The notes under the pieces were generated by a model. The model did not search any database and was not told the origin of the DNA. It saw only the letters and a list, made by a program, of their open reading frames with translations. Below are positions 1 through 45,471 of a stretch of 64,000 bases of DNA, in pieces. Positions within the stretch are counted from its first letter, which is position 1. The number at the start of each line of letters is the position of its first letter. The stretch is from the NCBI GenBank assembly GCA_963816185.1, contig CAWFJJ010000028.1:64001-128000 (forward strand), written 5' to 3'. The DNA comes from Thermoanaerobaculia bacterium. GTDB lineage: Bacteria; Acidobacteriota; Thermoanaerobaculia; UBA5066. The position numbers and the translations under genes were made by a program.

Positions 1-359
1 GTTGAATCAGGTTCGCGTCTCGGTACACGGGCTCTCCCATGCGTCCGTCGGCAACCCGGCAGGCGTGGGGGCTCCCCTCACGCAATCGCCCTTCGCCCAG
101 ACGCCCTACGGCGCGGCCGCGTTCGGGGCCGGCTACTCGCCGGGCTTCATCCAGCAGCAGCCTCCAGCCGGGGTTCGCGCCCCAATACCCGGTCGGGATC
201 GGCCAGGGCTTCAATCCCGTGCTCGGCCTGAGCCACACGACCCAGGAGGGCCTCGAGAACCGTCCCGTCTGGACGGACCCGCTGATGGCGGCGCGAATCG
301 CCCAGACCTTCCCGTACCTTTACCTCTCGGTGTCGCCGGCTGTCGGAACGATCTACTAG
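1..359 (+). CDS. Hypothetical G/P/Q/Y-rich protein with two GLSH motifs (5' partial, apparent frameshift near 160)
   Basis: Frame of ORF 2.. reads LNQVRVSVHGLSHAS...GFIQQQ. Protein-like text continues in the frame of ORF 39..359 (LQPGFAPQYPVGIGQGFNPVLGLSHTT...TIY*). Confidence 0.6.
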
Positions 360-416
360 TCCGTTTGAATCCAATCGGGTCAATCCGGCGCCGGGAGGAA
401 GCGAATCAGTGCCAGG

Positions 417-449
417 GGCGGGGCCGCCAGAGTGGCCCCGCCGCTTTCT
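417..449 (+). terminator. GC-rich hairpin, terminator-like
   Basis: GGCGGGGCCGC-CAGA-GTGGCCCCGCC forms an 11-bp stem with one GU pair, followed by GCTTTCT. Confidence 0.45.
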
Positions 450-519
450 CATGAAGACGCGAGACCGGACCACCGCGAGACAGAGCCGTTCGGTCCTCGC
501 GAGCCGAAAAGGAGCGGGT

Positions 520-1065
520 ATGAACAAGAACGTGGAGACCCTTCCGAACACGGGAATCGACGAGACGATCGGACGCATCGAAGATCTCTACCAGAAGGTG
601 ACGGGGACGGCCGTCCCGGCGGGCGATGCCCTCTACGCACCGATCCCGGCCGAGAGAGATCCCGCCGAGCACGTCGAGGAGCAGCTCAACCGCCTGCTCG
701 GAATGCTGGGCGGCTGGGCGTCGCCGTCGAGCCCCGCGTGGGCTCCGCCGATCTCGATCTCGGAGAGCGAATCCGAGATCGTCGTCGACGCCGATCTTCC
801 CGGAGTCGGCCGGGATCAGGTGTCCGTGACGGTGCATGGGAACGCGCTCGTCATCGCCGGTTCGCGCCTGGTCTCGCACAACAACGGGATGCTGTTCAGG
901 CAGAACGAGCGGCCGCTCGGGCCGTTCCGCCGCGTCGTGATGATGCCGGGGATGCGCTCGGGCGAGCCGGTCGCGCAGATGAAGGACGGTGTCCTCGAGA
1001 TCCGCATCCAGAAGGACACCCAGGCGGTGAAGCCCCGTCAGATCGTCGTCAATCACGTTAATTGA
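520..1065 (+). CDS. Hsp20/alpha-crystallin family small heat-shock protein
   Basis: AAAAGGAG RBS before ATG 520; motifs PPISISE, DLPGV, ERPLGPFRR, AQMKDGVLEIRI. Confidence 0.9.
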   Translation: MNKNVETLPNTGIDETIGRIEDLYQKVTGTAVPAGDALYAPIPAERDPAEHVEEQLNRLLGMLGGWASPSSPAWAPPISISESESEIVVDADLPGVGRDQVSVTVHGNALVIAGSRLVSHNNGMLFRQNERPLGPFRRVVMMPGMRSGEPVAQMKDGVLEIRIQKDTQAVKPRQIVVNHVN

Positions 1066-1089
1066 TCGCACGGGTCCCGGGGCGGGGCG

Positions 1090-3054
1090 CCAGTAGCCGA
1101 GCCAGACGTCCTTTCCGAAGGCGTGCACGACGGCCTCGTCGAGATCGGAGACGAACGAGACGATCTCGCGGCTGACGTCGGCCGGAACGAGAGCGCTTCC
1201 TTCGAGCTCGCGGCGGTTCCCCGCGGGGAGGAGGATCTTCGCGAGGTTGCGGTTGTAGGCCCCCCTCACCTTGTACTCGGGCTCGCCGACGGGTTTCACG
1301 ACGAGGACGTCGTGCGCGTCGGCCACGAGGGCGCCCGTCGACGCGATCGTCTGCGGCACGGGCTTGTCGAGGAAAACGGAGAGGAAAGCCAGCGCCGACG
1401 GGAGGCCGGCGGAGAGGCCCCCGGAGGGCTCGTCCTCCTTCGTGACCTTGTACGTGTAGCCGTAGTCGAGAATGTCGCGCGTCGGCTCCGGCCATTTCGC
1501 GCGCGCGTATTCCCGCACCGAGAAAAACGTGTTGCGCACGGCCTGCGTCATCTCGGGCGTGAGATTCCCGAGGATCTCCTCGAGGAATCCCCCGCGGCCG
1601 CGCTCGGCGGGCCGCCGGGCGGCCCAGACCTCGTGCACGAGACCGCGCGGTTTGCCGGAAAGGTGATACACGGCAGCGGCGAGCACGCGTCCCACGGGAT
1701 GCCGCGCCCGTTCCGCGGCGTCCTCGAGGGCCGCGGCACGTTTCGCGCAGCGCTCCGAGTCCGCCGTTCGGCCGAAGATTCCGTGGAACGCCGCGAGCTG
1801 CCGCCAGAGGGACGACCGGAGCGGAGAAGCGTGGAGCGCTGCGTCGAGGCGCTCGAGCGTCGCGCGCGCCGTTTCGGGGCGGCTGAAATAATCCACGACC
1901 GCGCGCGAAGGCTTTTGACCGTGATGCTCCAGAAGCGCGCCGATGATACGGAGATCGCCCGGCGACTTCTGCAGGCTCGCCAGATAGAGCGGAATCGCTT
2001 TCTCGAAAGATCCCTCGAGAGCGGTGAGATCGCCGCGGTACATGAGGCCGAGCGCGTCCTCGTCGTTCCGCAGCAGCTCGGCGGCCCCTCGCCGGTCGTG
2101 GCGGAGGGCGAGTGAGATCGCCCGCTCCCGGGGGAGATCAGGCGCGGCCCGGTCCGCGTCCGGGAAGGTGACCGCGCCGAGCTTGTCGAGGGGGAGATAG
2201 TGTTGCGCGGCGGTCCGGACGACGTCGCCGAACGAGGGACGGTGCATCCGGCGCCGGAAGAGCTCGAGGAAGCGCCGCTCGTAGCCGGCGGCTACTTGCG
2301 TCCGCCCGAGGAGCCGGCAAAGGGACGTCAGGTGCCCCAGCACGGAGACCTTCTCGTAGCTCCTCTCGAAATGCTGGTAGACGTTGACGGCCTTTTCCAG
2401 GAGCTCCTTCGTTCCGATCCGCTCGTAGAGCCGCGCGAGAGCCAGCACGCGGTCGCTGTCGGTCTCGAATCCGCGGTCCTTGCCGAGGGATTCCAGGATG
2501 GAGCGGGCGGAATCGAGGTCGCCCGAGAGCTCGGCGATCCAGGCGTTCGCGAGGACGGCGAGCTTGTAGACGTCGACGTCCGTCGCGCGGTACTTGCGCG
2601 CGATCTCCTCGCAGCGCTTACGCGCCTCGTCCGGACGCTCCTCGAGGAAGAGCCGGAACGCCCTCTCGAGCTCCAGGAGCGCCGCGGGCTTTTTCCAGAA
2701 CTGGAACGGTCCGAGGGCCACGTAGTTTCCGGGGCCGCGCCCGCTTTCCCTCGCGAATTGGAGAAGGGAGCTCAAGTGGATCAGGGCTCCCTGCTCTCGC
2801 GGAGCCTTCTCGTGCACCTGCGTCCAGCAGGCGATCGCCTCGGAGAGCTCTCCGCGCATGTGCTTGATCTTTCCGAGGAGGTCGAGCGCCGTCAGATCCT
2901 CCGGGCGCTCCTCGAGAGCTCCCTCGACCTCAGCTTCCGCGTCGTAGAGCTCGCCGAGCTCGACGAGAATGCTGGCATGTCGAAGGCGGTCGTCCAGGGT
3001 GGTCGAGGTCGCGGGTTGCCCGGAAGCGGCGGCGTCGTTCGTCACGCGCCGCAT
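1090..3054 (-). CDS. TPR-repeat protein with C-terminal Lon-type (S16) Ser-Lys protease domain; 3' end uncertain because the frame stays open to 406
   Basis: N-terminal TPR-like helices (ALDLLGKIKHMRGELSEAIACW; GDLTALEGSFEKAIPLY). C-terminal PSGGLSAG...ASTGAL...VKPVGEPEYKVRGA...KILLPAGN parallels Lon DGPSAG...TGE...PIGGLKEK...VLIP. Confidence 0.8.
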
Positions 3055-3133
3055 TGTAGTGAGCGGAGAGCAAAATTCGAGGGACCACCGCCGGCCAGTC
3101 GGAGGCAAGCCTAGACCACGGCGACGACCTCGA

Positions 3134-4381
3134 TCATCTTGCCGGATCGGAGGGACGTGTGTGCCCCGGCAACAACGGTTCGAGCGCATCCGCCGCTGCC
3201 GCAGAGCCGCCTGCCGCACGAAACGCGTCGGCGATCCGCTCGGCGCCAGCCCGGCATGCGCGGGCGCCCGCCACCGCGGCGCGGAGCCGCGCCGGAGTGA
3301 GCTTCTTCGCCGGCAGGCGCGTCCCCGCGCTCGCGACCTCCACGTGACGGGCGACCTCGAGCTGGTCGCGGCCGAACGGAACCACGCAGACCGGAACCCC
3401 TGCGGCCAGCGCTTTCTGCGTAACGCCCATCCCGCCATGGCACACGACCGCGACAGCTCGCCGGAGGATCGGGCCGTGTGGCACGAACCGTTCGACGCGC
3501 GCGTCAGCGGGCGGCCGGAAACGAGAGGGATCCACGGCGGCGGTCGTCACGACGACGAAGACGTCTTCCCCGGCGAGCGCCTCGAGCGCCACCTCGACCA
3601 GGCGGCCGTCGTCCTGGAACTCGGTCGAGCAGGTCACGAGCACGAGTGGTTTCGTCACGCGCGAGAGCCATGCCGGCGGATCGCCGGGCGGGTCCCAGAA
3701 GCACGGCCCGACGGGCACGACGCTGGGCGGGCGCGCGGGGCACGCGTACTCGAACGGCTCGGCCGTGTAGTACAGGATCCGCGGCGCGGTGCGGCCCAGG
3801 TCCGTCATGTGCGAGAGCGGCGGCAGCCCCACCCGGGCACGGATCGAGTTCAGCGCGGGAAGGTTGCGGTTGACGACGCCGTGGACCAGCTTCGCCATCA
3901 CGGTGTCGCGCAGCCGGCCGAAGAGATCACGGCGCGGCGCCAGACCGGGACCGAACGGCGGCAGCCCCGGCAACCTCCGCGGAAGGAAATACGGCATGAA
4001 GAGCGCCCAGGGCAGGCCCGACCGCTCAGCCACCGCCGCGGCGCCCCAGCAATTGAAATCGACGAGAAGCAGGTCCGGGTGCTCCGTCGCGATCGCGCCC
4101 TCGAGATCCGGGATCTCGTGCCCGGCGCGGGCGACGAACACGCGCACGGCGCGGTCGAGGGCGGCCGCCGGCGATGAAGCGCTCCAGTCGTCGTGCGTCA
4201 CCGCCTCGATCGCCGCGTCGATGGGGCGTGTCCGCAGCCCGGTCGCGGTCATCCGCTCCACCTCGCCCGACAGCGTCATCAACGTGACGTCGTGACCCCG
4301 GTGCACCATCTCGAGGAGCACGGGCACGGTCGGATACAGGTGACCCCGCCCCGGCGACGTGTAGCAGAGTACCTTCGCCAT
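3134..4381 (-). CDS. GT1/MGT-family (UDP-)glycosyltransferase
   Basis: GHLYPT N-terminal motif; FVPHGPIL...VCHGGMG...PFGRDQ UDPGT signature. Confidence 0.9.
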   Translation of the reverse strand: MAKVLCYTSPGRGHLYPTVPVLLEMVHRGHDVTLMTLSGEVERMTATGLRTRPIDAAIEAVTHDDWSASSPAAALDRAVRVFVARAGHEIPDLEGAIATEHPDLLLVDFNCWGAAAVAERSGLPWALFMPYFLPRRLPGLPPFGPGLAPRRDLFGRLRDTVMAKLVHGVVNRNLPALNSIRARVGLPPLSHMTDLGRTAPRILYYTAEPFEYACPARPPSVVPVGPCFWDPPGDPPAWLSRVTKPLVLVTCSTEFQDDGRLVEVALEALAGEDVFVVVTTAAVDPSRFRPPADARVERFVPHGPILRRAVAVVCHGGMGVTQKALAAGVPVCVVPFGRDQLEVARHVEVASAGTRLPAKKLTPARLRAAVAGARACRAGAERIADAFRAAGGSAAAADALEPLLPGHTRPSDPAR

Positions 4382-4980
4382 CACTTGCCTCCATACGCGC
4401 AGAGCGCGTCGATCATTCCGAGCACGACTTCCTCGGCGTCCGCGCGCGGCACGGCGAGATCGCGGCGCAGGAGCTTCCAGACGTACACGTCCGTGAGCGC
4501 GATCAGCTGCGTGCGCCGCCGGGAGCGCGCGCGCCCCCGGAAACGAACCAGCTCGGGTTCGAAGACCCGATCGACCCACTCGGCGTGCGTCCGGCGTCCT
4601 TCCCGCGCGATCGCGGCGATCTGGGGGATTCGCTCCTCCTGCTCGAGCAGGCGCATCACGGTCCGTCCCCAACGCTCGTAGTGGTCGAAGAGGTTCTTCA
4701 TCGCGGAGGCGGGATTCCGGACCGGCGAGGCGCCGCGTTGCGCCAGGATCTGCGCCCGTCCCTCTCGTACGGCGGCGACGAAGAGGCCTTCCTTCGAGCC
4801 GAACCGGCGTAGCACCGTCTGGACCGTGACTCCCGCGCGCGTCGCGGCCGCATGGACCGTGATCCGGTCGTATGGCCGCTCGGCGAAGAGCTCCTGCATC
4901 GCGTTCACGATCCGCCGGGCCGTCTCGGCCGCTGCGTCGGCGCGCGCGCGCATCCGGTAGGGTCGCCGCTTAGATTTCAT
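4381..4980 (-). CDS. TetR/AcrR family regulator
   Basis: HTH region ITVHAAATRAGVTVQTVLRRFGSKEGL; stop overlaps the GT start codon. Confidence 0.9.
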   Translation of the reverse strand: MKSKRRPYRMRARADAAAETARRIVNAMQELFAERPYDRITVHAAATRAGVTVQTVLRRFGSKEGLFVAAVREGRAQILAQRGASPVRNPASAMKNLFDHYERWGRTVMRLLEQEERIPQIAAIAREGRRTHAEWVDRVFEPELVRFRGRARSRRRTQLIALTDVYVWKLLRRDLAVPRADAEEVVLGMIDALCAYGGK

Positions 4981-4996
4981 ATTAGTTATACTAATA
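4980..4996. promoter_or_regulatory. Palindromic TetR operator candidate TATTAGT-TAT-ACTAATA
   Basis: Perfect 7-bp inverted repeat abutting the TetR ATG and containing a -10-like TATAAC on the minus strand. Confidence 0.65.
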
Positions 4997-5068
4997 CGAA
5001 TAGAAGCGAAGGTCGTGAACAACACGAGGGATAAGGCGACCGCACGCGGGCTGGCCTGGAGCTGAGGT

Positions 5069-5773
5069 TCAGTTCGCGACGCCGTCCTCTTGCAGGCGGT
5101 CCGCGAGAGCCGTGACCGTGCTCCGCGCGAGGTGACGGCTCATTGGAAACTCGGCGTCGCGGTTCGTGACGACGCCCTTCCAGATCTCGAGGTCGCCGTC
5201 GAGGGCCGTCAGGCTCGCGACGAAACGGGTTTGGATTTGCGTGGAGCCGGGGATTCCGAACCCGCCCTCGCCTGCGAGATCGGGGTAATGCTTCACGGCC
5301 ACCCCGTTCAGCCGGACGACGAGAAGGCCGTCGAAGCCCTCCTTCCGCGCCCGTTTGCGCAAGTCCACTTCGTCCAGGAGCGCCTTCACCTCCACGAGGC
5401 GCGGCCCCGACGGCCTACGGTTCCTCGCGTTCCAGAGGGCCTCGGCGGTTCCGCGCGACGCCGAGCGTCCGAGCCGGCGTTCGAGCGCTGCGATCTGAAT
5501 GGAAACGGAGTAGCCTGCCCCTTCGGCGAAGCTGTCGAGCGTGCCCTGCAGCGCCACCGTCTCGTACGACGCGGCCGGGTGCAGCGATGCGAGGCGAGCC
5601 ACGAGCGTGTCCTCTGCGACGCGGCGCGACGCGCCGGACAACTCGACGACGACGAGCGTGCGCGTGAAGGCGGGCGCGGGCTGCGGGAGGCGGGACCGGC
5701 TCTCTACGGAGATCGAGGAGCAGGCGGCCATGGTCAGCGTGGAGAGAGCCAAAAGGGCCGCAAAGAGCCTCAT
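5069..5773 (-). CDS. Hypothetical lipoprotein
   Basis: MRLFAALLALSTLTMAAC lipobox-like signal; AGGAGG RBS. Confidence 0.65.
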   Translation of the reverse strand: MRLFAALLALSTLTMAACSSISVESRSRLPQPAPAFTRTLVVVELSGASRRVAEDTLVARLASLHPAASYETVALQGTLDSFAEGAGYSVSIQIAALERRLGRSASRGTAEALWNARNRRPSGPRLVEVKALLDEVDLRKRARKEGFDGLLVVRLNGVAVKHYPDLAGEGGFGIPGSTQIQTRFVASLTALDGDLEIWKGVVTNRDAEFPMSRHLARSTVTALADRLQEDGVAN

Positions 5774-5989
5774 GGCGACCTCCTTCTCCAAGAGAGTCTC
5801 CGAATTGAGACTACTCCCTCGGATAGTGCATTTCCCGCGCCAGGAAGAGGTGAGAGCCCCAGTCGGGTCCACGCGTCCGCGCGCTGGATGTCGCCACGAA
5901 CTCGTCCGCGAACTGCGGCGGGTCTTGCGCCCGCTTCCGTCGTCGGAGGCGTAGTGGCGAAAGCGGACTCGAAGAAGGCGAGTTAGAAA

Positions 5990-6066
5990 TGGTGGGCCCG
6001 ACAGGAATCGAACCTGCGACACGCGGTTTAGGAAACCGCTGCTCTATCCAACTGAGCTACGGGCCC
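5990..6066 (-). tRNA. tRNA-Arg(CCT)
   Basis: Minus strand GGGCCCGTAGCTCAGTTGGATAGAGC-AGCGGTTT-CCT-AAACCGC-GTGTCGCAGGTTCGATTCCTGTCGGGCCCACCA; 77 nt with encoded CCA. Confidence 0.97.
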
Positions 6067-6119
6067 GGCCCTGGCGGGGAGTTGATTCTCGCATGCCGTA
6101 TTCGACAGAATGGCTCCCG

Positions 6120-6479
6120 GTGAAGAGGAAGAAGCACGAGGTCCCGGACCCCGGAACGAAGGAACACCGCAGGGGAAGCCGGGCCAAGGCCGTGATCCCC
6201 ATCGGCGTTCGCGTGGGCGGGCGTCCTCTGACCGCGGGCTGCACGCTCAACGTGGGAGAGAGCGGGGCGCTGCTCATCTGTTCAGAGGACCTCGACGTCG
6301 GCACCGAGATGCAGGTCACGAACCTCAAGTCCGACGAGTTCTTCACCTGCCGCGTGGTGCGGCGCGCCGGCTTCCACGAATCGGGCCGGTTCGGGCTCGG
6401 AGTGGAGATCCTGAACCCGGACCGTGAAACGGCCGACGCCCTCTCGGCGGCCGAGCGGGACAAGAAGAAGAGACGCTAG
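6120..6479 (+). CDS. PilZ-domain (c-di-GMP binding) protein
   Basis: RRGSR (RxxxR) and NVGESG (D/NxS/GxxG) motifs; start is GTG 6120 or ATG 6093. Confidence 0.75.
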   Translation: MKRKKHEVPDPGTKEHRRGSRAKAVIPIGVRVGGRPLTAGCTLNVGESGALLICSEDLDVGTEMQVTNLKSDEFFTCRVVRRAGFHESGRFGLGVEILNPDRETADALSAAERDKKKRR

Positions 6480-6481
6480 CC

Positions 6482-6730
6482 TCACGCGGAGATCTGCCGC
6501 GGTGAGTCCGACTTCTCGGACTTGAGGTGAACGAGGTGGATCACCTTGCTCGCGCGCACCGCGGCCGTGGCGCCAAGCGGCAGGAAGTCGTCCTCCTGGC
6601 GTGCGACGTACTTCGCGAAGCCGTCCGTTACCTCCGTGACGTCGTCGAGCTCGTGGAACATCTCGAATTCGACCGGTTCCGGCAGACCTTCCACAATGAG
6701 CCGAAAGGTGTGCAGGTAGTTGTGTTCCAT
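6482..6730 (-). CDS. Small acidic hypothetical protein (82 aa)
   Basis: GGAGG RBS, natural amino-acid composition and codon usage. Confidence 0.7.
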   Translation of the reverse strand: MEHNYLHTFRLIVEGLPEPVEFEMFHELDDVTEVTDGFAKYVARQEDDFLPLGATAAVRASKVIHLVHLKSEKSDSPRQISA

Positions 6731-6795
6731 GTGGGGCCTCCGGCGTTGATTGTCGCGCAGGCCGCGATTCGGAGAGGCGTCGTATCGTTAGGCGC

Positions 6796-8418
6796 TTGAA
6801 AGAGGCTTCCGGTTCCCTTCGGATCCCCGTCCTTCTCGCCGCGGCGGCGGCTCTGATCTACATGGTCGCCGCGGTGGGGCGCGACTTCTGGGCGCCCGAC
6901 GAGCCTGATTTCGCCGAGCAGGTGCGCGAGATGCTCGAGCGAAAGAGCGTTCTCCTGCCGTATCAGAACGGAAAGCCGTACTCGGAGAAGCCGATCTTCT
7001 TCTACTGGGCGGTGGCGGCGACGACGCCGCTCTCCGGGGGCGACGTGAGGCCCTTCGCGACGCGCCTGCCGTCGGTTCTCGCCGGCGCGGCCCTCGTTTT
7101 TTGCGCCGCGGCTTTCGCGGGCAGGCGCGGGGGAGACCGCGAGGCCCTCGTCGCGGGCGCGGCGACCGCCGTCGCGCCGATCGTCTTCTGGCAGGGACAG
7201 TTCCTTCAGGTCGACGCTCTCTTTTCCTGTTTGCTGATGCTCAGTCTGGTTTCGGTGTTTTTCTTAGAAGGTGAAGAGAGGCACGGCACGCGCTGGCTCT
7301 GGGCGCTGCGTTTTTCGATCGCGCTCGCCGTGCTGACCAAGGGCCCGCTGGCGATCGTCTTGGTGGGATTGGTCGTCCTCTCCCGCTGCGCGATGGCCAG
7401 GTCCTTGCGGCTCCTTGGCCGTCTGCAACCCATTCGAAGCATCCTCGTCTTTCTTCTCCTCGTGGTCCCCTGGTACTACCTTGCGGCGCGCGCCGGCGGC
7501 CCGACGTACGCCTACGACCTCGTCGTGAATCAGAACTGGAACCGCTTTTTCCGGGCCTTCGACCACATCCAGCCGTGGTGGTTCTATCTCGAGAGCATCT
7601 GGAGCGACTTCTTCCCGTGGACGGCGCTCGCGCTCGGAGCGCCCTTCGTGCTCGCCCGCGCGGGCCTCCTTCGCGAGCGGCCGGAGCTGCGGTTCGCCGT
7701 GACCGCCGCCGCGGTGATCTTCGTGTTCCTCTCCGTTTCGCAGTCCAAGCAGGGCAAGTACCTGCTCCCCGCTTATCCGTTCGCGGCGGTTCTCGTGGCG
7801 GCGCTCGCGGCGGAAGCGGAACGCAAAGCCGCGACGGGCGGAGGCGGCCTGCTCCGGGCCGTGCGCGCCTGGATCGCGCTCGCCGCGATCGTCCTCTTCG
7901 TCGGGGCGATCGCGCTCGCACCGGCCGTGCACCGGTTCGCGGCCGAACAGGCAGGCCTCGTGCCGTTCGCCGCGATTCCGATCGGCCTCGGGGCCGCCGC
8001 GACGCTCGTCATCCTGGCCGGGCGGCGGCTTGAAATAGTCCCCGCGATGCTCGCTCTCGCCGCGACTCTCGCGGCGGGGGAGGTCGCGGCGGGCGCCGTG
8101 GTATTCCCGGCGATCGATACCCTGAAGACGGGAAGGCCCTTTTACGAGCGCCTGCGTCCGCTTGTTTCACACGGCGAGCCCCTCGCCTACTTCGGAGACA
8201 CGTACCGCTGCTATCCGATCCTCGTTCTCCGGCGGAAGACCGAGCACTTCAGGAGCGACGCCGCGCTCGCGGAATGGATCGAGAGAACCCCCGGAGCCCT
8301 CGTGCTCGTGGACGAGAGCGAGCGGAGGCACTGGAGGGACGGCCGTCTCTCGCGACTCGTCGTCCTGGACCGGCAGCGGGTGGGCGGCGACGAGGCGCTG
8401 CTCCTGGGACGGCCATGA
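6796..8418 (+). CDS. ArnT/PMT-like GT-C glycosyltransferase
   Basis: PDEPDF, YSEKP, RLPS, LTKGP, K..KYLLP motifs; many TM segments. Confidence 0.9.
   Translation: MKEASGSLRIPVLLAAAAALIYMVAAVGRDFWAPDEPDFAEQVREMLERKSVLLPYQNGKPYSEKPIFFYWAVAATTPLSGGDVRPFATRLPSVLAGAALVFCAAAFAGRRGGDREALVAGAATAVAPIVFWQGQFLQVDALFSCLLMLSLVSVFFLEGEERHGTRWLWALRFSIALAVLTKGPLAIVLVGLVVLSRCAMARSLRLLGRLQPIRSILVFLLLVVPWYYLAARAGGPTYAYDLVVNQNWNRFFRAFDHIQPWWFYLESIWSDFFPWTALALGAPFVLARAGLLRERPELRFAVTAAAVIFVFLSVSQSKQGKYLLPAYPFAAVLVAALAAEAERKAATGGGGLLRAVRAWIALAAIVLFVGAIALAPAVHRFAAEQAGLVPFAAIPIGLGAAATLVILAGRRLEIVPAMLALAATLAAGEVAAGAVVFPAIDTLKTGRPFYERLRPLVSHGEPLAYFGDTYRCYPILVLRRKTEHFRSDAALAEWIERTPGALVLVDESERRHWRDGRLSRLVVLDRQRVGGDEALLLGRP
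7258..7442. repeat. Paired inverted motif locus A
   Basis: Left TTCTTAGAAGGTGAA 7261-7275; degenerate right arm ACCCATTCGAAGCAT (core 7433-7441). Confidence 0.6.
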
Positions 8419-12898: not shown

Positions 12899-14496
12899 CC
12901 TTCGAGCCCGGCCATCAGGCGTCCGAGCGTGGCAAGGGGCGTCGCGGGCTCGAGAGAACCCGACAGTCCGCCGCGGTAGACGACGCGAATCGGCGCGCCG
13001 AAGAGCTGCGCTTCGTCCGGATCCGCCGTGACGACGAGGGCGGCGGTCCCGGAGCGGCAGGCGTCGAGGATCCGGCTTCTGACGGCGGCAGCGGAAGCGA
13101 GATCGAGGCCCCGCGTCGGATGGACGGCGACGAGAAGCCCGGGACGGAGCGCGAGCTCGCGCGCGAGAACGGCCTTCTGCTGGTTCCCGCCCGAGAGGGA
13201 GCCCGCCGGGGCGTCGGAAGAGGAGTAGCGAACGCCGAACGCGCTCAGCCGCGCCTCGGCAAGCGCACGCATCGCCGTGCGGTCGAGGAAGATCCTGCCG
13301 GGAGGATTCGGGAGCGCGAGATTCTCCTCGAGGGACAGCGCCGCGACGAGGCCTTCCTCACGCCGGTCCGCAGGCACGAAGGCCCCGCCCGCGGCGCGAA
13401 ACGCGAGCGGGTCGCCCGAGGACGGCAGCGGGACGCCGCCGACCTCGACGCGTCCCGAGAAGGGCTCGAGTCCCGCGATCGCACGGGCGATCGTGTCTGC
13501 GCCGTTCCCGTCGATCGCGAGGAGGACGAGAAGCTCGCCGGAGGAGAGGGAAAGAGAAACTCTTTCTGCTCGGACTCTTCGCGCCTGCTCTGGTGCGAAG
13601 CCGGTGAGCGCGAGGCCCGGGAAATACGGCCCTTGGCCGGAGCGGTCCTCGAGCGGCACGCTGCCCTCTTCACCTTCTAAAGGATCTTTCTCTTTCTCTT
13701 CTTCTTTCCCTGTTATGAAGCCCTCCGCGTTCGCAAGCAGAAGTCCCCCGATCTCCTGCGGCGTCGTCTCGCTCGTTCGGCAGGTCTTGACCGACCGCCC
13801 CCGGGCGAGGAGCGTGAGCCGGTCGGCGCCCGCGAAGACCTCGGCGAGGCGGTGCGTGATGAGGACGACGGCGGCGCCGGCGCCGACGCGTTTTCTGAGG
13901 GACGCGAAGAGCGCCGCCGTTTCGTCGGGAGAAAGGACAGCCGTCGGCTCGTCGAGGATGAGGATGGCCGGGTCGCCGGCGAGCGCACCCGCGATCTCGA
14001 TGCGCTGGCGCGTTCCGACGGGCAACGCGTCGGCGCGGGCGTCCGCATCGCCGAGCTCGAGCCCGAACGCCTGCCCGAGGCGTGCGACACGGGCGCGCCG
14101 CGACGCGGCGGATTCGAAGAGAGGCGCCGCGGGATCGAGGAACGCGAGATTGTCGGCGACGCTCGCCGCACCGATCAGGAGATCGTGCTGCGGCACGAGA
14201 ACGAGCCCGGCGTGGCGGGCGTCGCGAGCGCCGCGAAACGACACGGGTGATCCGGCTCGCAAGATCTCGCCCGAATCGGCCACGAGCCTCCCCGCGGCGA
14301 TCGACACGAGGGTGGATTTCCCCGCGCCGTTCTCGCCGAGGAGGGCGTGGATTTCGCCGGGGAAGACGACGAGATCTGCTTCGGAAAGAGCCTGGGTGTC
14401 GCCGAAGCGCTTCGAGATGCGGCGGAGCTCGAGAGACGGGAGAGAAGACGAAGACGGAGACGAAGAGGAAGATTTCTTAGAAGGGTGTGCGGGCAT
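12895..14496 (-). CDS. Sugar/nucleoside ABC ATPase (two NBDs)
   Basis: GENGAGKST, LDEPT, LSGGNQQK. Start 14496 or 14541, both inside motif locus C. Confidence 0.9.
   Translation of the reverse strand: MPAHPSKKSSSSSPSSSSLPSLELRRISKRFGDTQALSEADLVVFPGEIHALLGENGAGKSTLVSIAAGRLVADSGEILRAGSPVSFRGARDARHAGLVLVPQHDLLIGAASVADNLAFLDPAAPLFESAASRRARVARLGQAFGLELGDADARADALPVGTRQRIEIAGALAGDPAILILDEPTAVLSPDETAALFASLRKRVGAGAAVVLITHRLAEVFAGADRLTLLARGRSVKTCRTSETTPQEIGGLLLANAEGFITGKEEEKEKDPLEGEEGSVPLEDRSGQGPYFPGLALTGFAPEQARRVRAERVSLSLSSGELLVLLAIDGNGADTIARAIAGLEPFSGRVEVGGVPLPSSGDPLAFRAAGGAFVPADRREEGLVAALSLEENLALPNPPGRIFLDRTAMRALAEARLSAFGVRYSSSDAPAGSLSGGNQQKAVLARELALRPGLLVAVHPTRGLDLASAAAVRSRILDACRSGTAALVVTADPDEAQLFGAPIRVVYRGGLSGSLEPATPLATLGRLMAGLEG
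13669..13710. repeat. Motif locus B (right arm plus CT tract; left arm not clear)
   Basis: TTCACCTTCTAAAGGATCTTTCTCTTTCTCTTCTTC in the inter-NBD linker. Confidence 0.55.
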
Positions 14497-14575
14497 CTGC
14501 GCAAGGGAACCGCCCCAGCCGCGCCTGTGGGCAGAGCCCATTCACCCTTCTAAGAATCTTCGCGCCGAAGGCGCG
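14470..14575. repeat. Paired inverted motif locus C
   Basis: GATTTCTTAGAAGGGTG (core 14474) ... TTCACCCTTCTAAGAATCTT (core 14548), then hairpin CGCGCC-GAA-GGCGCG. Confidence 0.85.
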
Positions 14576-14606
14576 CGGTCTTCTCTTCGGATGTTCTTTC
14601 GCTGTC

Positions 14607-15587
14607 TCAGAAGTTTCCCCTCGGCACGATGAGCGTCCCTGCCTTGATCTTCTCTTCTGTTGTTTTCGCCTCCTCGACGACTGGAGGCGGGATCTTCGCG
14701 AGCGCAGCCGGATTCCACACGAAAGAGATCACGCCGCTCGAGAGGCCGTAGCGGAGCGGCTGGCCGTCGAACTTCCCGTCCTTCACGCGGCGCGCGGTCT
14801 CGACGAACGCGCGGGGCATGTCGATGACGGCCGAGGCGAGGACTGCCGGCGAGAGCGCGTTCTGGTCCTTGTTCGTACCGAAGGCCCAGATCGCACGCTC
14901 TTCGGCGCCCTTGAAGACGCCGAGGGCCGCGGCATCGGCGTTCTGGAAGAGGAAATCGCAGCCCCGGTCCGCCAGCGCGAGCGCCGCCGTTTTCGCCCCC
15001 GCGACGTCTTCGAACGAGCCCGTGAAGACGGGCTGTGCCGTTCCGCCGGGATGTCCGGCCGCGAAGCCCGCCTCGTACGCGAGGAACGTGGACTTGATCG
15101 ACGGAAGCTCGACACCGCCGACCATGCCCGCCTTGCCGGTCTTCGTCATTCGGCCCGAGACGAGACCGCACAGATACGCCGCCTGCTCGAGCTCGAAGAC
15201 GATGGGCGCGAGGTTCGGCCCCGTGCGCGAGCCGGACGTCGTCACGAAGATCGTCTTCGGATATTCCTTCGCGACGCGCTCCGCCGCGTCCTGGAACTCG
15301 AAGCCGTGGCCGAACACGAGGCGCGTGCCCTTCGCCGCGTAGGCTCGAAACTGCTCCTCGAATTCCGAGGGCGACTTCACCTGCACGTGCGAGACGGACG
15401 CGCCAAGCTCCTTCTCGATCGCCTTGAGACCGTCGTACGCTCCCGCGTTCCAGCCGGCGTCCGAGATGGGTCCCGGCGTCAGGAGGGCGACGCTGAAGCG
15501 GGCGGACCGGGCGGGCGTTTCGCCCCGGCCGCAGGCGGCGAGGACGAGAGAAGCGACGGTGAGGAGGACCGGAGGTGTTGGCTTCAT
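14607..15587 (-). CDS. BMP/PnrA-family ABC substrate-binding lipoprotein
   Basis: LAAC lipobox; ISDAGWNAGAYDGL, GHGFEF motifs. Confidence 0.9.
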   Translation of the reverse strand: MKPTPPVLLTVASLVLAACGRGETPARSARFSVALLTPGPISDAGWNAGAYDGLKAIEKELGASVSHVQVKSPSEFEEQFRAYAAKGTRLVFGHGFEFQDAAERVAKEYPKTIFVTTSGSRTGPNLAPIVFELEQAAYLCGLVSGRMTKTGKAGMVGGVELPSIKSTFLAYEAGFAAGHPGGTAQPVFTGSFEDVAGAKTAALALADRGCDFLFQNADAAALGVFKGAEERAIWAFGTNKDQNALSPAVLASAVIDMPRAFVETARRVKDGKFDGQPLRYGLSSGVISFVWNPAALAKIPPPVVEEAKTTEEKIKAGTLIVPRGNF

Positions 15588-15622
15588 GTCTCGATTATGC
15601 CGTCGAGACCTATGATCGAAAG

Positions 15623-16225
15623 GTGTCGCTCCATCTCGACGCGGCGGCCCGTAAGAGCATCCTCGACTTCGTCCGGCCTCTCTCCGTCGGGATCGACGGC
15701 GTCACGAACTTCGGCTTCGTGGAGAGGAGGCTGAGGATTTCGGACTTCTTAGAAGGTGAAGAGGGAAGGGGCGATGTGGCGGGAGAGGCTGGAGCGGATC
15801 CGGCGCGCCTCTTTCTCCTGGGCGCTTTCGCCGGCCTCCCATCGGCTCGGCGCATCACACCCGACGGCCGCGAGGCTCTGCTCCTGCGCTCTCTGCATAT
15901 TCCATTCGAAGAAATCTCTTCTCTTTCTCTTTCTCTCTCCCGCCTCGAGTCTTCGCCTGAATCGCCCGAAGAGAGAATCGTCCACGACGCGATGCTCCTC
16001 GAATCCGTCGGCGCGTACGGAGTCACGCAGCTTCTCGTCGCCGGGGCGCGCGAGCGGATGACGCTCGCCGAGATGGCGCAGGAGATCGAGGAGAAGATGG
16101 AATCGGCGCGGTTCGCGACGGAGGCCGGCCGGCGCCTCGCGGCCGATCGCGTCGCCTTCGCGACCCAGTTCGCGCGGAAGCTCGCCGAGGAGGCGCGGGA
16201 GTTCGAGCCCGTCGCACCGGGTTGA
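15623..16225 (+). CDS. Degenerate HD-domain (YedJ-like) protein
   Basis: IVHDAMLLESVGAYG and FATEAGRRLAADR resemble the HD C-terminal motifs; TATGAT -10 box 7 bp before the GTG. Confidence 0.6.
   Translation: MSLHLDAAARKSILDFVRPLSVGIDGVTNFGFVERRLRISDFLEGEEGRGDVAGEAGADPARLFLLGAFAGLPSARRITPDGREALLLRSLHIPFEEISSLSLSLSRLESSPESPEERIVHDAMLLESVGAYGVTQLLVAGARERMTLAEMAQEIEEKMESARFATEAGRRLAADRVAFATQFARKLAEEAREFEPVAPG
15746..15940. repeat. Paired inverted motif locus D
   Basis: TTCTTAGAAGGTGAA 15746-15760 ... TTCCATTCGAAGAAAT (core 15905), then a long CT tract. Confidence 0.75.
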
Positions 16226-16236
16226 CCTCCAGGGGC

Positions 16237-17033
16237 TCACTCCCCGCCCGGCGTCGATCTCCCTGCATCCACGGTGACGACCTGGCCGGTCATCGACCGG
16301 TTCTCGAGCACGACGATCGCCATGGCGGTGAGGTCTTCGACGTTCACTTTGCGTGCGAGAGGCGTCCTGGCGACGAGGGCCGCGACCGCCTCGGCGCTCA
16401 TCTCCGCGGGCGGCAGGACGACTCCCGGGGCGAGCGCGTTCACCCGCACCTCGGGGCCGAGGGCGACGGCGAGGTTGCGCACGAGAGCGTTGATCGCCGC
16501 CTTGGCGGCCGAGTGCGGGATGTGCGACGGCCACGCCTGCGTCGCCGCGACGTCGGAGATGAAGAGGATCGATCCCTGCGCGGCGCGGAGCGCCGGCAGA
16601 GCAGCCTGCGCGAGGAAGAATGCGGCGCGGGGGCCGGCGCGAAAAACCGCCTCCCAGTCGGCGAGGCGACACGGAAGAGAAGGGCTTCGGGATCCACGGA
16701 GACGCGGCGTGAACGAGGGCATCGAGGCGGGGGGAAGAGCGCGAGAGATGCGGCGAAGAGGAAGAGAGAAGAGAGACGAAGAGAAGATTTCTTCGAATAG
16801 TTTGTGCGGCGCGTCGTCAGTGGCGAGATCGACGTGGAAGGCTTCGGCGCGGATGCCCTCTTTCCTTCTAAGAAGAATTTCCACCGCCGGCCTGCCGCTT
16901 CGGCACGGCTCGTGTAGGAAGTCAGAGCGATCGAATAGCCCTCGTCTGCCAACGCCTTCGCGAACTCGAAGCCGAGCCGCTTCGCCCCGCCCGTGACGAG
17001 GGCGACCTTCGCGGCGTTCCTCGCGTCCGTCAC
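16237..17033 (-). CDS. SDR oxidoreductase (pteridine reductase/FolM-like), several frameshifts 16650-16900
   Basis: ALVTGGAKRLG in one frame, LDALVHAAS in another, HSAAKA...RVNALAPG...MTGQVVTVDAG in a third. Confidence 0.75.
16755..16880. repeat. Paired inverted motif locus E
   Basis: GA tract, ATTTCTTCGAATAG (core 16789) ... TTTCCTTCTAAGAAGAA (core 16866). Confidence 0.75.
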
Positions 17034-17545
17034 GGCGCCGCAGCCTCGGGCCCGGGCGGGACGGCGGTGGCGGCTTCGTCCATGAGCTGGTTCGTTTCCG
17101 CCATCGCCACGACCTCGCGGCCGAGGGCCACGACGTGAATGAGCACGCAGAGGACCGCGGCGACGAGGTGCAGAGAGGCGGGTGTCTTTCCCGTGTGCGC
17201 GGTGACGCCGAGAAGGCCCGCGGCCAGCGCGGAGAGCGGAGCGAAAGTACAGAGGGCCGACGTCCTCATCTTGAAATGACGCACGCGGGCCAGGATGAAG
17301 TCCCGTCCGGCCGCGTCCGGGCGCTTCGACGCGGCCTCCTTGAGGAGCTTTCCCGTGCCGATGAAGAAGAAAAGGATCATCGACTGCGTGAAGAGGGAGA
17401 AGAGCACCGTCGGAATCGCGACCGCGATGTGACGTGCGGCCGTGACCGATCCGCCGAGCGCGTGCGAAAGGGCCCAGCCGGACGCCGCGGACAGGAAGAG
17501 CCCCACGAGCGTGAAAATCGAAAGAAGCGTGAGCGCCAACGCCAC
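17030..17545 (-). CDS. Hypothetical membrane protein (about 4 TM)
   Basis: Hydrophobic helices with conserved-looking FFIGTGK; overlaps the SDR start. Confidence 0.7.
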
Positions 17546-17599
17546 GGGCTCCCACTATAATCCGTGCGGTTTACGCACAGAGTGCCGGGAGGCCGCGCC

Positions 17600-19402
17600 A
17601 TGACGCCAAGGACGCTCGTCGACATCTTCCGCAACCTGGCGGACACGCCGAAGCCGGATCTGCTTCTCTACAAGCAGGGCGGGAAGTGGATTCCCATCAG
17701 CACGGCCGAGTTCATGGACCGCGTCAAGGCCCTCTCGTCGGCGCTCGAAGGCCTCGGCGTGAAGCCGGGCGGCCGGGTGGCTCTTCTCTCGGAGAACCGG
17801 CCCGAGTGGGCGATCGTCGACTTCGCTTGCCAGTGCTACGGCGCCGTGCTCGTGCCGATCTTCCCCACGATGGTCGCCGAGCAGGCCGCGTACCTCCTCA
17901 AGGACTCCGGAGCGACCGTGGCGTTCGCGTCGACGCCCGGCCAGGCGGCGAAGATCCTCGGCGCGCAACAGGCGTCTCCCGAAGTGAAGCAGACGTTGAA
18001 GCACGTGATCGTCTTCGAGACCTCCCCACAGCCCGGCACGACCCCGTACGCCGACGTCGTCGAGAAAGGCCGGGGCGCGTACGCGGCCGACCCGTCCGCG
18101 TTCGAGAAACGCGCCGACGCGCGCCAGCCCTCCGACCTCGCGACGCTCATCTACACCTCGGGCACCACGGGCGAGCCGAAAGGCGCGATGCTCACGCAGA
18201 GCAACTTCGTCTCGAACGTCATCGCGGGCTGCTCGGTCCTGCCGTTCGACTCCTCGGCGGTCGCGCTGTCGTTCCTCCCGCTCGCGCACGTCTTCGAGCG
18301 AATGCTCGAGTACTGCTATTACAACCGCGCCGCGACCATCGCGTTCGCGGAGTCCATCGACAAGCTGCGCGACAACCTCTCGGAGGTGAACCCGCACCTT
18401 TTCGGCGCCGTCCCCCGCGTCTACGAGAAGGTCTACGGACGCGTGCAGGAGAACCTCTCGAAGTCCTCGCCCGCCAAGCGGAAGATCTTCGAGAAGGCAG
18501 TCGAGGTCGGCAAGAAGGCTACGGAGCTGCGTGCACGGAAGAAGACGCCGGACTTCGCGCTCGCACTCCAGCTCTTCATCTACGAGCGCCTCGTCTACCG
18601 CAAGGTGCGCGCGGCCCTCGGAACGCGCTTCCGGTTCGCCGTGTCAGGCGGTGCGCCGCTGGCCCGCGAGCTGGCCGAGTTCTTCTGGGCGGTCGGCGTC
18701 GAGGTCTACGAGGGATACGGCCTCACGGAGACGAGCCCGGTCATCGCCGTGAATTGTCCGTCGGCGTGGCGGCTCGGGGCCGTCGGCAAGATCCTGCCCG
18801 GCGTCGAGTGCCGCATCGCGCCGGACGGGGAGATCCTGACGCGCGGCCCGCACATCATGAAGGGCTATTTCGGGAAGCCGAAGGAGACCGCCGACGCGAT
18901 CGACGCGGACGGCTGGTTCCACACGGGCGACATCGGCCGGATCGACGAGGACGGCTTCCTCATGATCACGGACCGGAAGAAGGAGATCCTCGTCAACTCG
19001 AACGGCAAGAACGTCGCCCCCGCGCCGATCGAGGGATTCCTCAAGGGCCATCCCTTCGTCTCGCTCCCGGTCCTCATCGGCGACCGCCGGAAATACCTGT
19101 CGTGTCTCTTCGTGCCGAACTTCGACAAGCTCGCGAGCTGGGCGAAGGAAAACGGCCTCGGGAGCCTCCCCATGGAGGACCTCGTGGCAGAGCCGCGGGT
19201 CGTCGCCATCTTCCAGAGCGCGATCGACGAGTGGAACGCGGGCAAGCCGCACGAAATGCTCATCAACCGGTTCGTGATCCTGCCCCGCGACCTCACGATC
19301 GAGAGCGGCGAGCTGACGCCGACGCTCAAGGTGAAGCGCCGCATCGTGGACCAGCACTTCAAGCACCTGATCGACGGGATGTACGAGGGAACGGCGGCCT
19401 GA
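17600..19402 (+). CDS. fadD: Long-chain fatty-acid--CoA ligase
   Basis: [40 protein letters not shown]; TATAAT at 17556. Confidence 0.93.
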
Positions 19403-19431
19403 GCTCTCTCGGACGGGTGGATCACGAGCGC

Positions 19432-20388
19432 ATGCGCGTCGTCGTCGCTCTCGGGGGAAACGCCTTGCTCCGCAGGGGCGAGGCGATGACGGTCGAGCGG
19501 CAGCGCGCGAACGTGCGCCGGGCCGCCGAGGCGCTCGCCCCGGTCGCGCGGGATCATGAGCTCGTCATCTCGCACGGGAACGGCCCGCAGGTGGGTCTTC
19601 TCGCTCTCCAGGCCGAGTCGGGGCTCGACGCCGCGCACTTCCCGCTCGACGTTCTCGGAGCCCAGACGGAGGGAATGATCGGCTACATGATCGAGCAGGA
19701 GCTCGGAAACCTCCTGCCGTTCGAGAAGCCCTTCGCGACGCTCTTGACGATGGTGGAGGTCGATCCCGCCGATCCCGCTTTCGCGAAGCCCGATAAGCCG
19801 ATCGGTCCCGTCTACGCGGAAGAGGACGCGCGACGCCTCGGGAAGGAGCGCGGCTGGTCGGTCGCGCGAGACGGCAACGGGTGGCGTCGCGTCGTCGCAT
19901 CGCCCCTGCCGAAGCGAATCTTCGAGATCCGTCCCGTGAAATGGCTTCTCGAAAAAGGCACGATCGTGATTTGCGGGGGAGGAGGCGGGATCCCGACCAT
20001 CTACGGCGAGCACGGAAAGCTGCAGGGCGTCGAGGCCGTGATCGACAAGGACCGTGCGGCGGCGCTCCTCGCGCAGCAGCTCGAGGCCGACTTCTTCATC
20101 ATGGCGACGGACGTTCCGGCCGTCCTCGTCGGCTGGGGGACGCCGGACGCACGCGCCATACGCCGCGCCTCGCCCGCCGCGCTCTCACGCTTCGACTTCG
20201 CCTCCGGCTCGATGGGGCCGAAGGTGGAGGCGGCCAAGGACTTCGCCGAGCGGACCGGGAGGACCGCCGCCATCGGCGCCCTTGAGGACATCCCGCACAT
20301 CCTCGGCGGCGAGGCAGGCACGCTCGTCTCCAACGACGTCGCCACGATCGAGTGGGCTCCGTCGCAGGAGACGCTCTTCCAGGAATGA
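19432..20388 (+). CDS. arcC: Carbamate kinase
   Basis: [35 protein letters not shown]. Confidence 0.95.
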
Positions 20389-20411
20389 CTTCCGAGGTCA
20401 ACGGGCCTCGT

Positions 20412-23860: not shown

Positions 23861-23887
23861 GGCACCGTCACAGTGCGGGACGCGCGG

Positions 23888-25570: not shown

Positions 25571-25711
25571 GGTGCCTCTACGTTATCCCACTTGCCTCGG
25601 CATTCGTGATCCCGGGAGACGCGCTCCCTGTCATTTGCATCAGGGAGTTGCCCTACGGAACGTGGCACGATCAATCTGGCGGGAACCGAGTTCCCGGCAG
25701 CGGGGGCAATT

Positions 25712-30003: not shown

Positions 30004-30055
30004 CCCCTTCCGAGCGAGGACCCCTGCGCCGTACGAGCCTGCCGTTTGAGCTCGC

Positions 30056-30105
30056 TTGACACGGGCGTGGGCGCGGCCTAGGCTACTGAGTGATGGCTCA
30101 TTCAG
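30056..30105 (+). promoter_or_regulatory. Sigma70 promoter TTGACA-N17-TAGGCT plus operator palindrome CTGAGTGA-TGGC-TCATTCAG
   Basis: -35 at 30056, -10 at 30079; palindrome 30086-30105 covers the start codon. Confidence 0.75.
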
Positions 30106-36251: not shown

Positions 36252-36293
36252 GACTTTCGCGCGTCGAGCGAATGCAGAGTATCGAGTGAAGTT

Positions 36294-36400
36294 GTTTTTC
36301 TTAGAATGGTAATGAGGCCCAGGGCGCGCCGCGTCGTCACCGCGGATGACGAACGGCGTGGCACGTCGCAGCGCTCTTCCTCTCCTTCATTCATAGAAAC
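36294..36400. repeat. Paired inverted motif locus I
   Basis: TTTTTCTTAGAATGGTAA (core 36298) ... CCTTCATTCATAGAAAC (core 36390). Confidence 0.65.
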
Positions 36401-42322: not shown

Positions 42323-42479
42323 GCGACTCTCCTCCGGTGCGCGAGTCTTGCTCGATCACGCTTCGGACGCAATCGAGCGCCGGAGCCGGCCGACCGCGTT
42401 CCTCTCATTGCGGTGCGGTCTGCTTCTATACTGCGACCAGATCTCACATGACGAATGCACCGGCGCCGGGAGACTCCTG

Positions 42480-45461: not shown

Positions 45462-45471
45462 GAGGCACGCC

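Follow-up and report, generated by a model that had tools for sequence, protein, structure and literature searches.

The 64-kb stretch of Thermoanaerobaculia DNA analysed here (contig CAWFJJ010000028.1, positions 64,001 to 128,000; hereafter the window, meaning the stretch at its full length) carries repeated copies of an AT-rich word of about 20 bp. The copies, termed arms, stand mostly in facing pairs (a plus-strand copy followed by a minus-strand copy), and most of them lie inside open reading frames (ORFs). The motif, its pairing, its restriction to one clade, two routes of origin (substitution in place and insertion of modules) and conservation in excess of the background were all observed. 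The arms were read as paired recognition sites in double-stranded DNA (dsDNA) for one protein, kept by selection or drive at the DNA level and arising by both routes, and a probability of approximately 50% was assigned to this reading. We infer that a protein binds the arms and that the binding has an effect.

The G+C content along the window was 63–72%, and the arm word is AT-rich against a background of 68%. The window proteins had their nearest matches among metagenomic Thermoanaerobaculia (Acidobacteriota) sequences. The 11-mer TTCTTAGAAGG, extended by TGAAGAGGG, was present over the 64 kb in 8 exact copies and 6 copies with one mismatch, distributed on both strands. The 14 copies observed with at most one mismatch compare to 0.27 on average, and never more than 2, over 100 dinucleotide shuffles, and TTCTTAGAAGG was the joint commonest 11-mer of the window despite its AT-richness. 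When a 15-mer was searched with up to 4 mismatches, 24 matches were obtained, versus 0–6 in 20 shuffles. The consensus of 40 copies from the window and six related loci was (G/A)(A/T)T-TTCTTAGAAGG-TGAAGAGGG; the arm of about 20 bp can thus be written as GAT-TTCTTAGAAGG-TGAAGAGGG, and many arms bear an outer polypurine tract or a small GC hairpin. Symmetry within the consensus was limited to TTCT-N-AGAA, while the word of 18–20 nucleotides (nt) as a whole is directional and forms no perfect palindrome. A search of the whole window against Rfam at E values up to 1 returned one tRNA and one weak unrelated match, neither on an arm. No account of the word, and none of comparable repeats from this lineage, turned up in literature searches.

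The relatives compared were loci from a scan of genome contigs carrying ArnT, taken with 10-kb flanks. Six close loci (70–86% ArnT identity) gave 26 matches with at most one mismatch in 90.4 kb, and gene order was preserved in them. No match was present in 67.4 kb from L005, L007, L008 and L009 (55–62% ArnT identity) together with L011, the L011 stretch being 10.3 kb and nearly entirely upstream of ArnT; a further 69 loci showed near-zero matches, and no comparable AT-rich word occurred among the top 11-mers of the motif-free relatives. The motif is therefore restricted to one Thermoanaerobaculia clade. The positions of the window arms are also occupied in L001, L002, L003 and L010, where slightly altered forms such as TTCCTAGAAGG and CTCTTAGAAGG occur. 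Third-position identity at identical residues was 0.54–0.75 against L002, L003 and L010, and synonymous sites are near saturation in relatives that keep the arms at orthologous sites. Against L003 (72% DNA identity), at least 17 of 18 bases were kept in 6 of the 9 arm windows, compared to 8.6% of all 18-nt windows; the corresponding values against L010 were 5 of 9 and 10.7%.

Under looser matching, 21 arms could be distinguished, 19 of which fall into 9 facing groups with 45–176 bp between copies, and the motif pairs described in the first-pass annotation are confirmed as real. The groups were located in ArnT (7261/7431), at the junction between the Bmp and ABC ATPase genes (14474/14546), in orf15575 (15746/15903), in the SDR gene (16789/16864), in the FadJ linker (34027/34093), at the FadJ end (34392/34437), at the start of a metallo-beta-lactamase-fold (MBL-fold) gene (36298/36388), in the C-terminal piece of GT2 (43799/43923) and in the ABC-F linker (54686 + 54713/54789). 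Arms at 13673 and 46869 were unpaired. Among 13 purine-flanked matches, a strong arm faced the match within 200 bp in 9 and stood back-to-back with it in none; by our own estimate, a facing neighbour is expected by chance for about 4% of such matches. The two arms of one pair are often dissimilar and could be assigned to an A type, TTCTTAGAAGGTGAAGAGGG, and a B type, (GARA)n-GAT-TTCTTCGAATG. The interior was 55–65 nt long at five loci, irrespective of whether it was host-derived (SDR, 64 nt; FadJ, 55 nt) or not (ABC junction, 61 nt; ABC-F, 65 nt; ABC linker of the relatives, 64 nt). Helical phasing of the pair spacing, worked by hand, gave no clear pattern. The individual arms are as follows.

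7261–7278, plus strand: ArnT left arm (A type), TTCTTAGAAGGTGAAGAG, reading FLEGEE, then TGAAGAG after TTCTTAGAAGG; exact core, in place relative to four motif-free loci, 16–18 of 18 bases kept in L001, L002, L003 and L010.
7431–7461, minus strand: ArnT right arm (B type; degenerate TGCTTCGAATG at 7431–7441 and purine tract at 7442–7461), reading PIRSILVFLLL; CGA AGC ATC kept in the clade, CGC GGC GCC in outgroups.
13664–13708, minus strand: single arm in the inter-domain linker of the ABC ATPase, with purine tract (KEEEKEKDPLEGEE); orthologous arm with facing partners in L001, L002, L003 and L010.
14440–14488, plus strand: Bmp/ABC junction module, right arm with purine tract; sense-frame translation HPSKKSSSS.
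14539–14582, minus strand: left arm of the junction module with the adjoining GC hairpin CGCGCC-TTCG-GGCGCG; module absent in L002.
15746–15765, plus strand: orf15575 left arm, DFLEGEE; 17–18 of 18 bases kept in L002, L003 and L010, 12 of 18 in L001.
15903–15940, minus strand: orf15575 right arm (TTCTTCGAATG and purine tract), IPFEEISSL.
16755–16799, plus strand: SDR B arm and purine tract, sense reading KLFEEIFSSS...; Ser tract 14–20 residues longer than in L005 and L007.
16855–16874, minus strand: SDR A arm, variant TTCTTAGAAGGAAAGAGGG, ILLRRKEG, in-frame TGA avoided; in place relative to ELLKEAGG of L007.
34027–34047, plus strand: FadJ linker left arm, degenerate, FYEREKRG.
34084–34123, minus strand: FadJ linker right arm and purine tract (SSPSKNPSLSSS).
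34372–34402, plus strand: B arm across the C-terminal codons of FadJ; relatives end in GKKFFE.
34428–34447, minus strand: A arm between FadJ and the acyl-CoA dehydrogenase gene.
36293–36312, plus strand: A arm overlapping the start of the MBL-fold gene.
36388–36418, minus strand: degenerate facing partner at the MBL-fold gene (TTCTATGAATG and purine-rich flank), the weakest arm listed.
43799–43813, plus strand: left arm in the C-terminal piece of GT2, FFLEGEL; in place relative to FAVEGLF of homologue P0364.
43914–43953, minus strand: GT2 right arm and purine tract, LFTFKEILFSF, within a length-variable loop.
46869–46879, minus strand: single arm within the N-terminal portion of the amidohydrolase ORF, following cytidine deaminase; reads ASKKS.
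54686–54727, plus strand: ABC-F linker, two arms in tandem at a 27-bp distance; variant TTCTTCGAAGG reads SSK, in-frame TAG avoided.
54780–54819, minus strand: facing arm of the ABC-F linker and purine tract, TPSKKSSSSS, with an adjoining GC hairpin at 54819–54840.

A further candidate arm, not included in the counts, was seen at 30758–30768 on the plus strand, where a TetR gene encodes its C-terminal tail; it reads TGCTTCGAAAG, is purine-flanked and has no facing partner within 200 bp. The match at 61888 was dismissed as a chance match within a Phd/YefM antitoxin gene. Reading the arm as a ribosome-binding site with a start codon (GGTGAATG) suited the ABC junction and the MBL-fold gene start and was dropped as a general account because the remaining arms do not fit it.

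The first-pass annotation had proposed that the motif pairs were written into conserved coding sequence rather than inserted. The alignments support origin in place for both ArnT arms, the FadJ linker arms, the SDR pair and the left GT2 arm. At these sites the motif-free relatives have sequence of equal length with GC-rich codons and other residues. The left ArnT arm reads TTC TTA GAA GGT GAA GAG in the clade, while the motif-free loci read CTC CTG GCC GAG GAC GAC or similar, and the right arm shows the CGA AGC ATC versus CGC GGC GCC exchange; the number of codons at the ArnT arms was unchanged in L005, L007, L008 and L009. The predicted replacement of GC-rich by AT-rich codons at equal length was thus found at ArnT. 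All six FLEGEE columns were occupied in 118 of 120 homologue clusters, 67 of which, nearly all closer matches, begin FLE; distant clusters have FVEEDV, LVELDA or GVWNDP at the same length, so these orthologues do not carry the same peptides. The ArnT interior was confirmed to hold the conserved segment LAVLTKGP, with L180, K182, G183, P184 and L185 invariant in 28 ArnT sequences. The SDR A arm reads ILLRRKEG where L007 has ELLKEAGG, and the 22 residues between the SDR arms are clearly homologous to the outgroup. ASPGSVS.ISPEALE of the FadJ homologues is replaced in the FadJ linker by SSPSKN...LSSSEIQ at nearly equal length. From KGFY to RLVLPMINEA, the length of FadJ was constant within a few residues in nearly all rows shown of a 120-cluster alignment in which duplicate segments had been collapsed, in agreement with the roughly normal length noted earlier; P0177 and P0230, with larger Ser-tract inserts, were exceptions. 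The FadJ arm at 34392 overlies the C-terminal GKKFFE of the relatives, and FFLEGEL of GT2 stands at the site of FAVEGLF in P0364. Since the word was built into existing genes at unchanged protein length, a DNA-level signal overrides the usual codon choice there. The earlier claim that the same peptides were forced into unrelated proteins holds for their recurrence and needs softening as to the forcing, which was mild because the ancestral peptides at arm sites (xVEEDx, ELLKEAGG, SPGS, GKKFFE) already resembled the translated motif.

Writing in place does not extend to the Bmp/ABC junction, the ABC-F insert, the ABC linker module, the 27-bp tandem copies or the expanded SDR Ser tract. Presence or absence of a module appeared as an arm-bounded gap at the Bmp/ABC junction (L002), the ABC-F insert and the ABC linker, and not in ArnT, SDR or FadJ. 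At the Bmp/ABC ATPase junction, a palindromic module of approximately 140–200 bp was found in the window, L001, L003 and L010, in the order purine tract, GC hairpin, arm, interior of 60–61 nt, arm and pyrimidine tract. L002 lacks it, and the Bmp stop there lies 11 nt from the LELR codons; comparison of this empty site with the filled one showed no target duplication, the junction being purine-rich and ambiguous. Across the four genomes, identity was 92% in the arms and 60% in the interior, and the GC hairpin showed 3 compensatory pairs. The same junction in L005 (18400–18635) holds two copies of another hairpin repeat (CCTGGGGG-TTTCTCGAT-CCCCCCAGG), so that it seems to attract repeats in both lineages. 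In the inter-domain linker of the ABC ATPase, a similar module is present in the relatives, of which the window retains one arm only. The ABC-F arms sit in a linker insert of about 45 residues missing from the outgroups. A perfect 9-bp GC hairpin by the ABC-F arm (54819–54840) encodes DRAAERRRA, a peptide shared by motif-free outgroups; its palindromic codon choice could be due to chance or to further in-place writing. L004 and L006 gained a second ArnT arm copy through a 27-bp tandem duplication, and the forward arms of ABC-F are likewise 27 bp apart. The SDR polypurine/Ser tract is 14–20 residues longer than in L005 and L007.

Codon use at the arms was as unusual as first suggested for TTA, TCT and GAA. 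TTA accounted for 7 of 16,021 codons (0.4% of Leu), and 4 of these 7 lay in the arm zones, which hold 2.2% of codons; the zones also contained 25 of 88 TCT and 21 of 204 GAA codons. The recurring peptides reported earlier were recovered by translation: FFLEGE in ArnT and GT2, PLEGEE and HPSKKSSSSS in the ABC ATPase, TPSKKSSSSS in ABC-F and SPSKN in FadJ. DFLEGEE is likewise present in orf15575, the "HD-like" label of which depends on a sub-threshold match (E 0.002, 0.0007). ASKKS could also be found, but not in the deaminase to which it had been assigned: it lies beyond that domain (46365 to about 46770) in the amidohydrolase ORF. The same bases were read as FLEGEE, ILLRRKEG, SSKGK, SSPSKK and IHLLRN in three frames, and they also occur between genes. 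Variants of the word changed only stop-making bases, TAG becoming TCG in ABC-F and GGTGA becoming GGAAA in SDR. When RNA folding of the 9 pairs was assessed on both strands, the intergenic junction module alone stood out; four coding pairs folded at z −0.5 to 0 relative to shuffles and the GT2 pair at −1.5. No compensatory change was found between arms. Reverse arms were as conserved as forward arms, though different as RNA, and the two facing arms are equivalent only as duplex DNA. Frame-independent reading, stop-only variants, rare codons, arm conservation, absence of arm covariation, weak coding folds and duplex-only equivalence together therefore favour a protein that reads dsDNA at two inverted sites.

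Mid-gene frame changes were seen in GT2, which is split over two ORFs (42455–44146), and in the FadJ C-terminus, which leaves the frame and returns (about 34240–34400); further breaks occur in SDR (16237–17000), at the start of acyl-CoA dehydrogenase (34468–34500) and in the N-terminus of the amidohydrolase (about 46780–46950). ArnT of L010 has the same pattern. These breaks look like indel errors of long-read assembly rather than pseudogenes, and statements on reading frame therefore lean on L001 and L003.

In the favoured explanation, the arm would be a lineage-specific, DNA-level signal of about 20 bp acting as two facing copies, and the two inverted sites would be brought together by one protein with its gene in another part of the genome, for instance a transposase, a recombinase or a bridging nucleoid protein. 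Arms in conserved coding segments arise by base substitution where the ancestral codons were already motif-like, using rare AT-rich codons and bending the word only where a stop would appear. Gene junctions and inter-domain linkers receive them as entire palindromic modules, some 100–200 bp in length, which are read through in frame; 27-bp tandem duplication and tract slippage are further sources. Established arms would then be held by purifying selection at the DNA level or by site-directed drive.

Several observations weigh against this explanation. Among the window ORFs scanned (47 + 12 + 4), no recombinase or transposase domain and no candidate binding protein was found. B-type arms carry 2–3 mismatches and were partly recognised through their flanks. 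The arms are clumped, with none in 1–7260 and none in 16875–34026, and all counts come from about 155 kb (the 64-kb window together with about 90 kb of sequence from the relatives). The conservation seen would be expected under selection and under biased conversion or uptake alike, and there is no evident host reason for sites within FadJ, SDR and ArnT. By our own tally, 8 of the 9 pairs have their A arm on the upstream side with respect to the sense strand, and the orientation reverses with the gene strand; this suggests some connection with transcription, which a model of DNA sites alone would not predict. Compared to shuffles, the junction module folded at z −4.4 (sense) and −6.6 (antisense), and one U-A to U-G change in it is tolerated on the sense strand only.

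This orientation bias would suit an RNA-level element, in which the A arm, rich in purines, and the B side, rich in pyrimidines, would act in mRNA, jointly or singly, as a signal for processing, pausing, Rho loading or stability. Several pairs at operon junctions (Bmp/ABC, FadJ/acyl-CoA dehydrogenase, MBL-fold gene start), the junction module fold and its compensated hairpin are consistent with this; four of the five coding pairs, however, fold like shuffles, the arms neither covary nor match Rfam, and the reverse arms, although another RNA sequence, are equally conserved, which leaves such an element improbable. An uptake-like molecular drive, by which variants better matching the preference of an uptake or recombination machine spread through transformation, is also unlikely, but to a slightly lesser degree. 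It would account for copies on both strands, the clade limit, the retention of orthologous sites and a density of about one arm per 3 kb, within an order of magnitude of known cases; origin in place at poorly conserved residues and unchanged length is as described for uptake sequences in the cited passages of PMC2817400. Uptake does not require facing groups (19 of 21 arms, 45–176 bp), and the A and B arms of a pair differ, some copies come as inserted palindromic modules, and the codons used here are rare whereas those at uptake sequences are described as preferred (PMC2817400).

The facing pairs could also be the inverted repeats of genome-wide intragenic invertons, by which one master recombinase reversibly recodes or silences the host gene. 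In-gene inverted repeats around a host interior fit such switches as they are outlined in PMC10028968, and the arms are conserved while the interiors are free to vary. Flipping the interiors in silico left the frame open in all 6 independent coding pairs; the chance expectation of this result is about 0.09 (product of per-gene controls), and the inversion is therefore not counted as evidence. The interiors were collinear, with none flipped, in L001, L002, L003 and L010, although consensus assemblies could hide a minor form; flipped peptides found no cognate match in a local BLAST against 393 homologue proteins, no recombinase was present among the scanned window ORFs, and flipping would ruin the invariant ArnT segment. 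To our knowledge, there is no precedent for nine switches within 64 kb located in housekeeping enzymes, and we consider this account less probable than either of the two preceding ones. Still less probable is a purely mobile palindromic element, in frame everywhere, with the apparent host interiors being cargo or products of misleading alignment. Three arm-bounded modules do vary in presence among relatives, the architecture is that of a long hairpin, and in-frame read-through is as described for Rickettsia palindromic elements (PMC10969869). The ArnT, SDR and FadJ interiors, however, are homologous to motif-free relatives at equal length, ArnT L180 and K182–L185 are invariant between the arms, no target duplication was visible at the purine-rich, ambiguous empty site of L002, and the interiors of separate loci do not align. 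An all-against-all comparison of 15 interiors as one mobile family scored only orthologues and a few 11–13-mers; the weak likeness of the ArnT and GT2 interiors (z 8, mononucleotide shuffles) was treated as GC-rich chance, as was an 11-mer that the ABC-F interior has in common with that of the L003 junction. One mobile element as sole account is thus refuted for ArnT, SDR and FadJ and stands for the modules only. Convergence or chance at the protein level, with DNA likeness as a by-product of recurring acidic and Ser/Lys-rich linkers, is hardly credible: such peptides are indeed frequent in the loops and linkers that contain the arms, yet an identical 18-nt string with codons of 0.4% frequency recurs in unrelated genes and is read in three frames and between genes, and shuffles give 0.27 copies. 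Over-representation, the shared string and the rare codons refute it.

Paired dsDNA sites for one protein thus remain the preferred reading. More speculatively, and with a probability we regard as low, a dedicated machine may recognise facing 20-bp pairs genome-wide and either write the word by templated patches or use hundreds of pairs as switches or anchors. In the latter case the pairs would act inside housekeeping genes, for example as intragenic inversions by one recombinase or as anchors of micro-loops; on either view a second, positional code would be laid over the protein code.

Other features of the window were also recorded. A PnrA-type nucleoside ABC transporter lies at 9.8–15.6 kb. 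The ORF orf15575 (15575–16225, plus strand) has 73–77% identity in L001, L002, L003 and L010; L005 and L007 lack it and have the Bmp and SDR genes side by side. Its sole family match was a sub-threshold HD-type phosphohydrolase. A nucleoside salvage cluster at 44214–49547 (plus strand) consists of a nucleoside transporter, purine nucleoside phosphorylase, cytidine deaminase, amidohydrolase and thymidine phosphorylase. The protein encoded at 59241–61382 (plus strand) is 713 residues long with 13 tandem GloVer "choice-of-anchor" repeats (TIGR03803, E 7e-134). A type II toxin-antitoxin pair at 61406–62067 (minus strand) comprises a PIN-domain toxin (61406–61822) and a Phd/YefM antitoxin (61819–62067), whose stop and start codons overlap.

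Why genes should contain hyper-abundant words is a long-standing question, for which HIP1 provides the precedent in the parts of PMC5861425 cited here. The features that narrow it in the present case are a long directional word, facing pairs with preferred spacing and both routes of origin side by side, which point to a protein bringing two sites together, and the arm pairs offer concrete bait for finding that factor. DNA-level signals can fix rare codons and given residues in enzymes of an uncultured lineage, which is relevant to the reading of codon usage, to alignments and to the detection of insertions in metagenome-assembled genomes. For the clade itself, the word serves as a sharp marker.

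Among known systems, the closest analogues appear to be uptake sequences, HIP1 and Rickettsia palindromic elements, none of which fits fully. In the uptake signal sequences of Pasteurellaceae and the DNA uptake sequences of Neisseriaceae, copies within genes are placed at poorly conserved residues and raise the frequency of the encoded peptides, and frame use follows preferred codons, according to the portion of PMC2817400 relied on here. Likewise, the present word is short, over-represented on both strands, clade-specific and made in place, with coding copies at poorly conserved residues and unchanged length (ArnT, FadJ, SDR, left GT2 arm). It differs in being 18–20 nt long, asymmetric and mostly arranged as facing pairs with unlike arms, in using rare codons (TTA, with TCT and GAA enriched) and in being carried at times on inserted palindromic modules. 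HIP1 of cyanobacteria (GCGATCGC) is hyper-abundant, and selection has been inferred for it because it is conserved within and between ORFs; the cited sections of PMC5861425 report that no peptide or RNA role was found, that a role in chromosome structure was proposed and that function was unestablished after 20 years. The arms resemble HIP1 in being conserved between genomes above background (6 of 9 arms against L003), whereas HIP1 is a perfect 8-bp palindrome with no partner and the window motif is long, directional and paired, with tracts and hairpins.

Rickettsia palindromic elements are described, in the part of PMC10969869 drawn on here, as palindromic modules of about 150 bp that are read through in frame within metabolic genes unrelated to one another. 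Their behaviour, and that of other in-frame miniature inverted-repeat transposable elements, is matched by the modules at the ABC junction, in the ABC linker and in ABC-F, and terminal inverted repeats correspond to the facing arms of the 9 groups. Rickettsia elements are insertions with a common interior, in contrast to the window, where the interiors differ and those of ArnT, SDR and FadJ are host gene. The inverted-pair geometry also recalls repetitive extragenic palindromic (REP) sequences, REPINs and BIMEs, as do the GC-rich hairpin with compensatory changes by some arms and the copy between the binding-protein and ABC genes. REPINs reportedly consist of two inverted copies with a spacer between, and REP units are said to carry a GTAG or CGTC tag; a junction between binding-protein and ABC genes is a classic REP site. 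Unlike these extragenic, GC-rich palindromes of 20–40 bp, the arms are not hairpins and lie mostly in genes, the neighbouring GC hairpins lack a GTAG or CGTC tag, and no RAYT transposase gene was found among the ORFs scanned in the 64-kb window. Intragenic invertons, as presented in the material cited from PMC10028968, are inverted repeats within coding sequence that flank host sequence, and inverted repeats stand around host sequence in ArnT, SDR, FadJ and GT2 as well; the window differs from them in showing no evidence of inversion, in having one consensus at about 9 loci in 64 kb and in the conservation of its arms across species.

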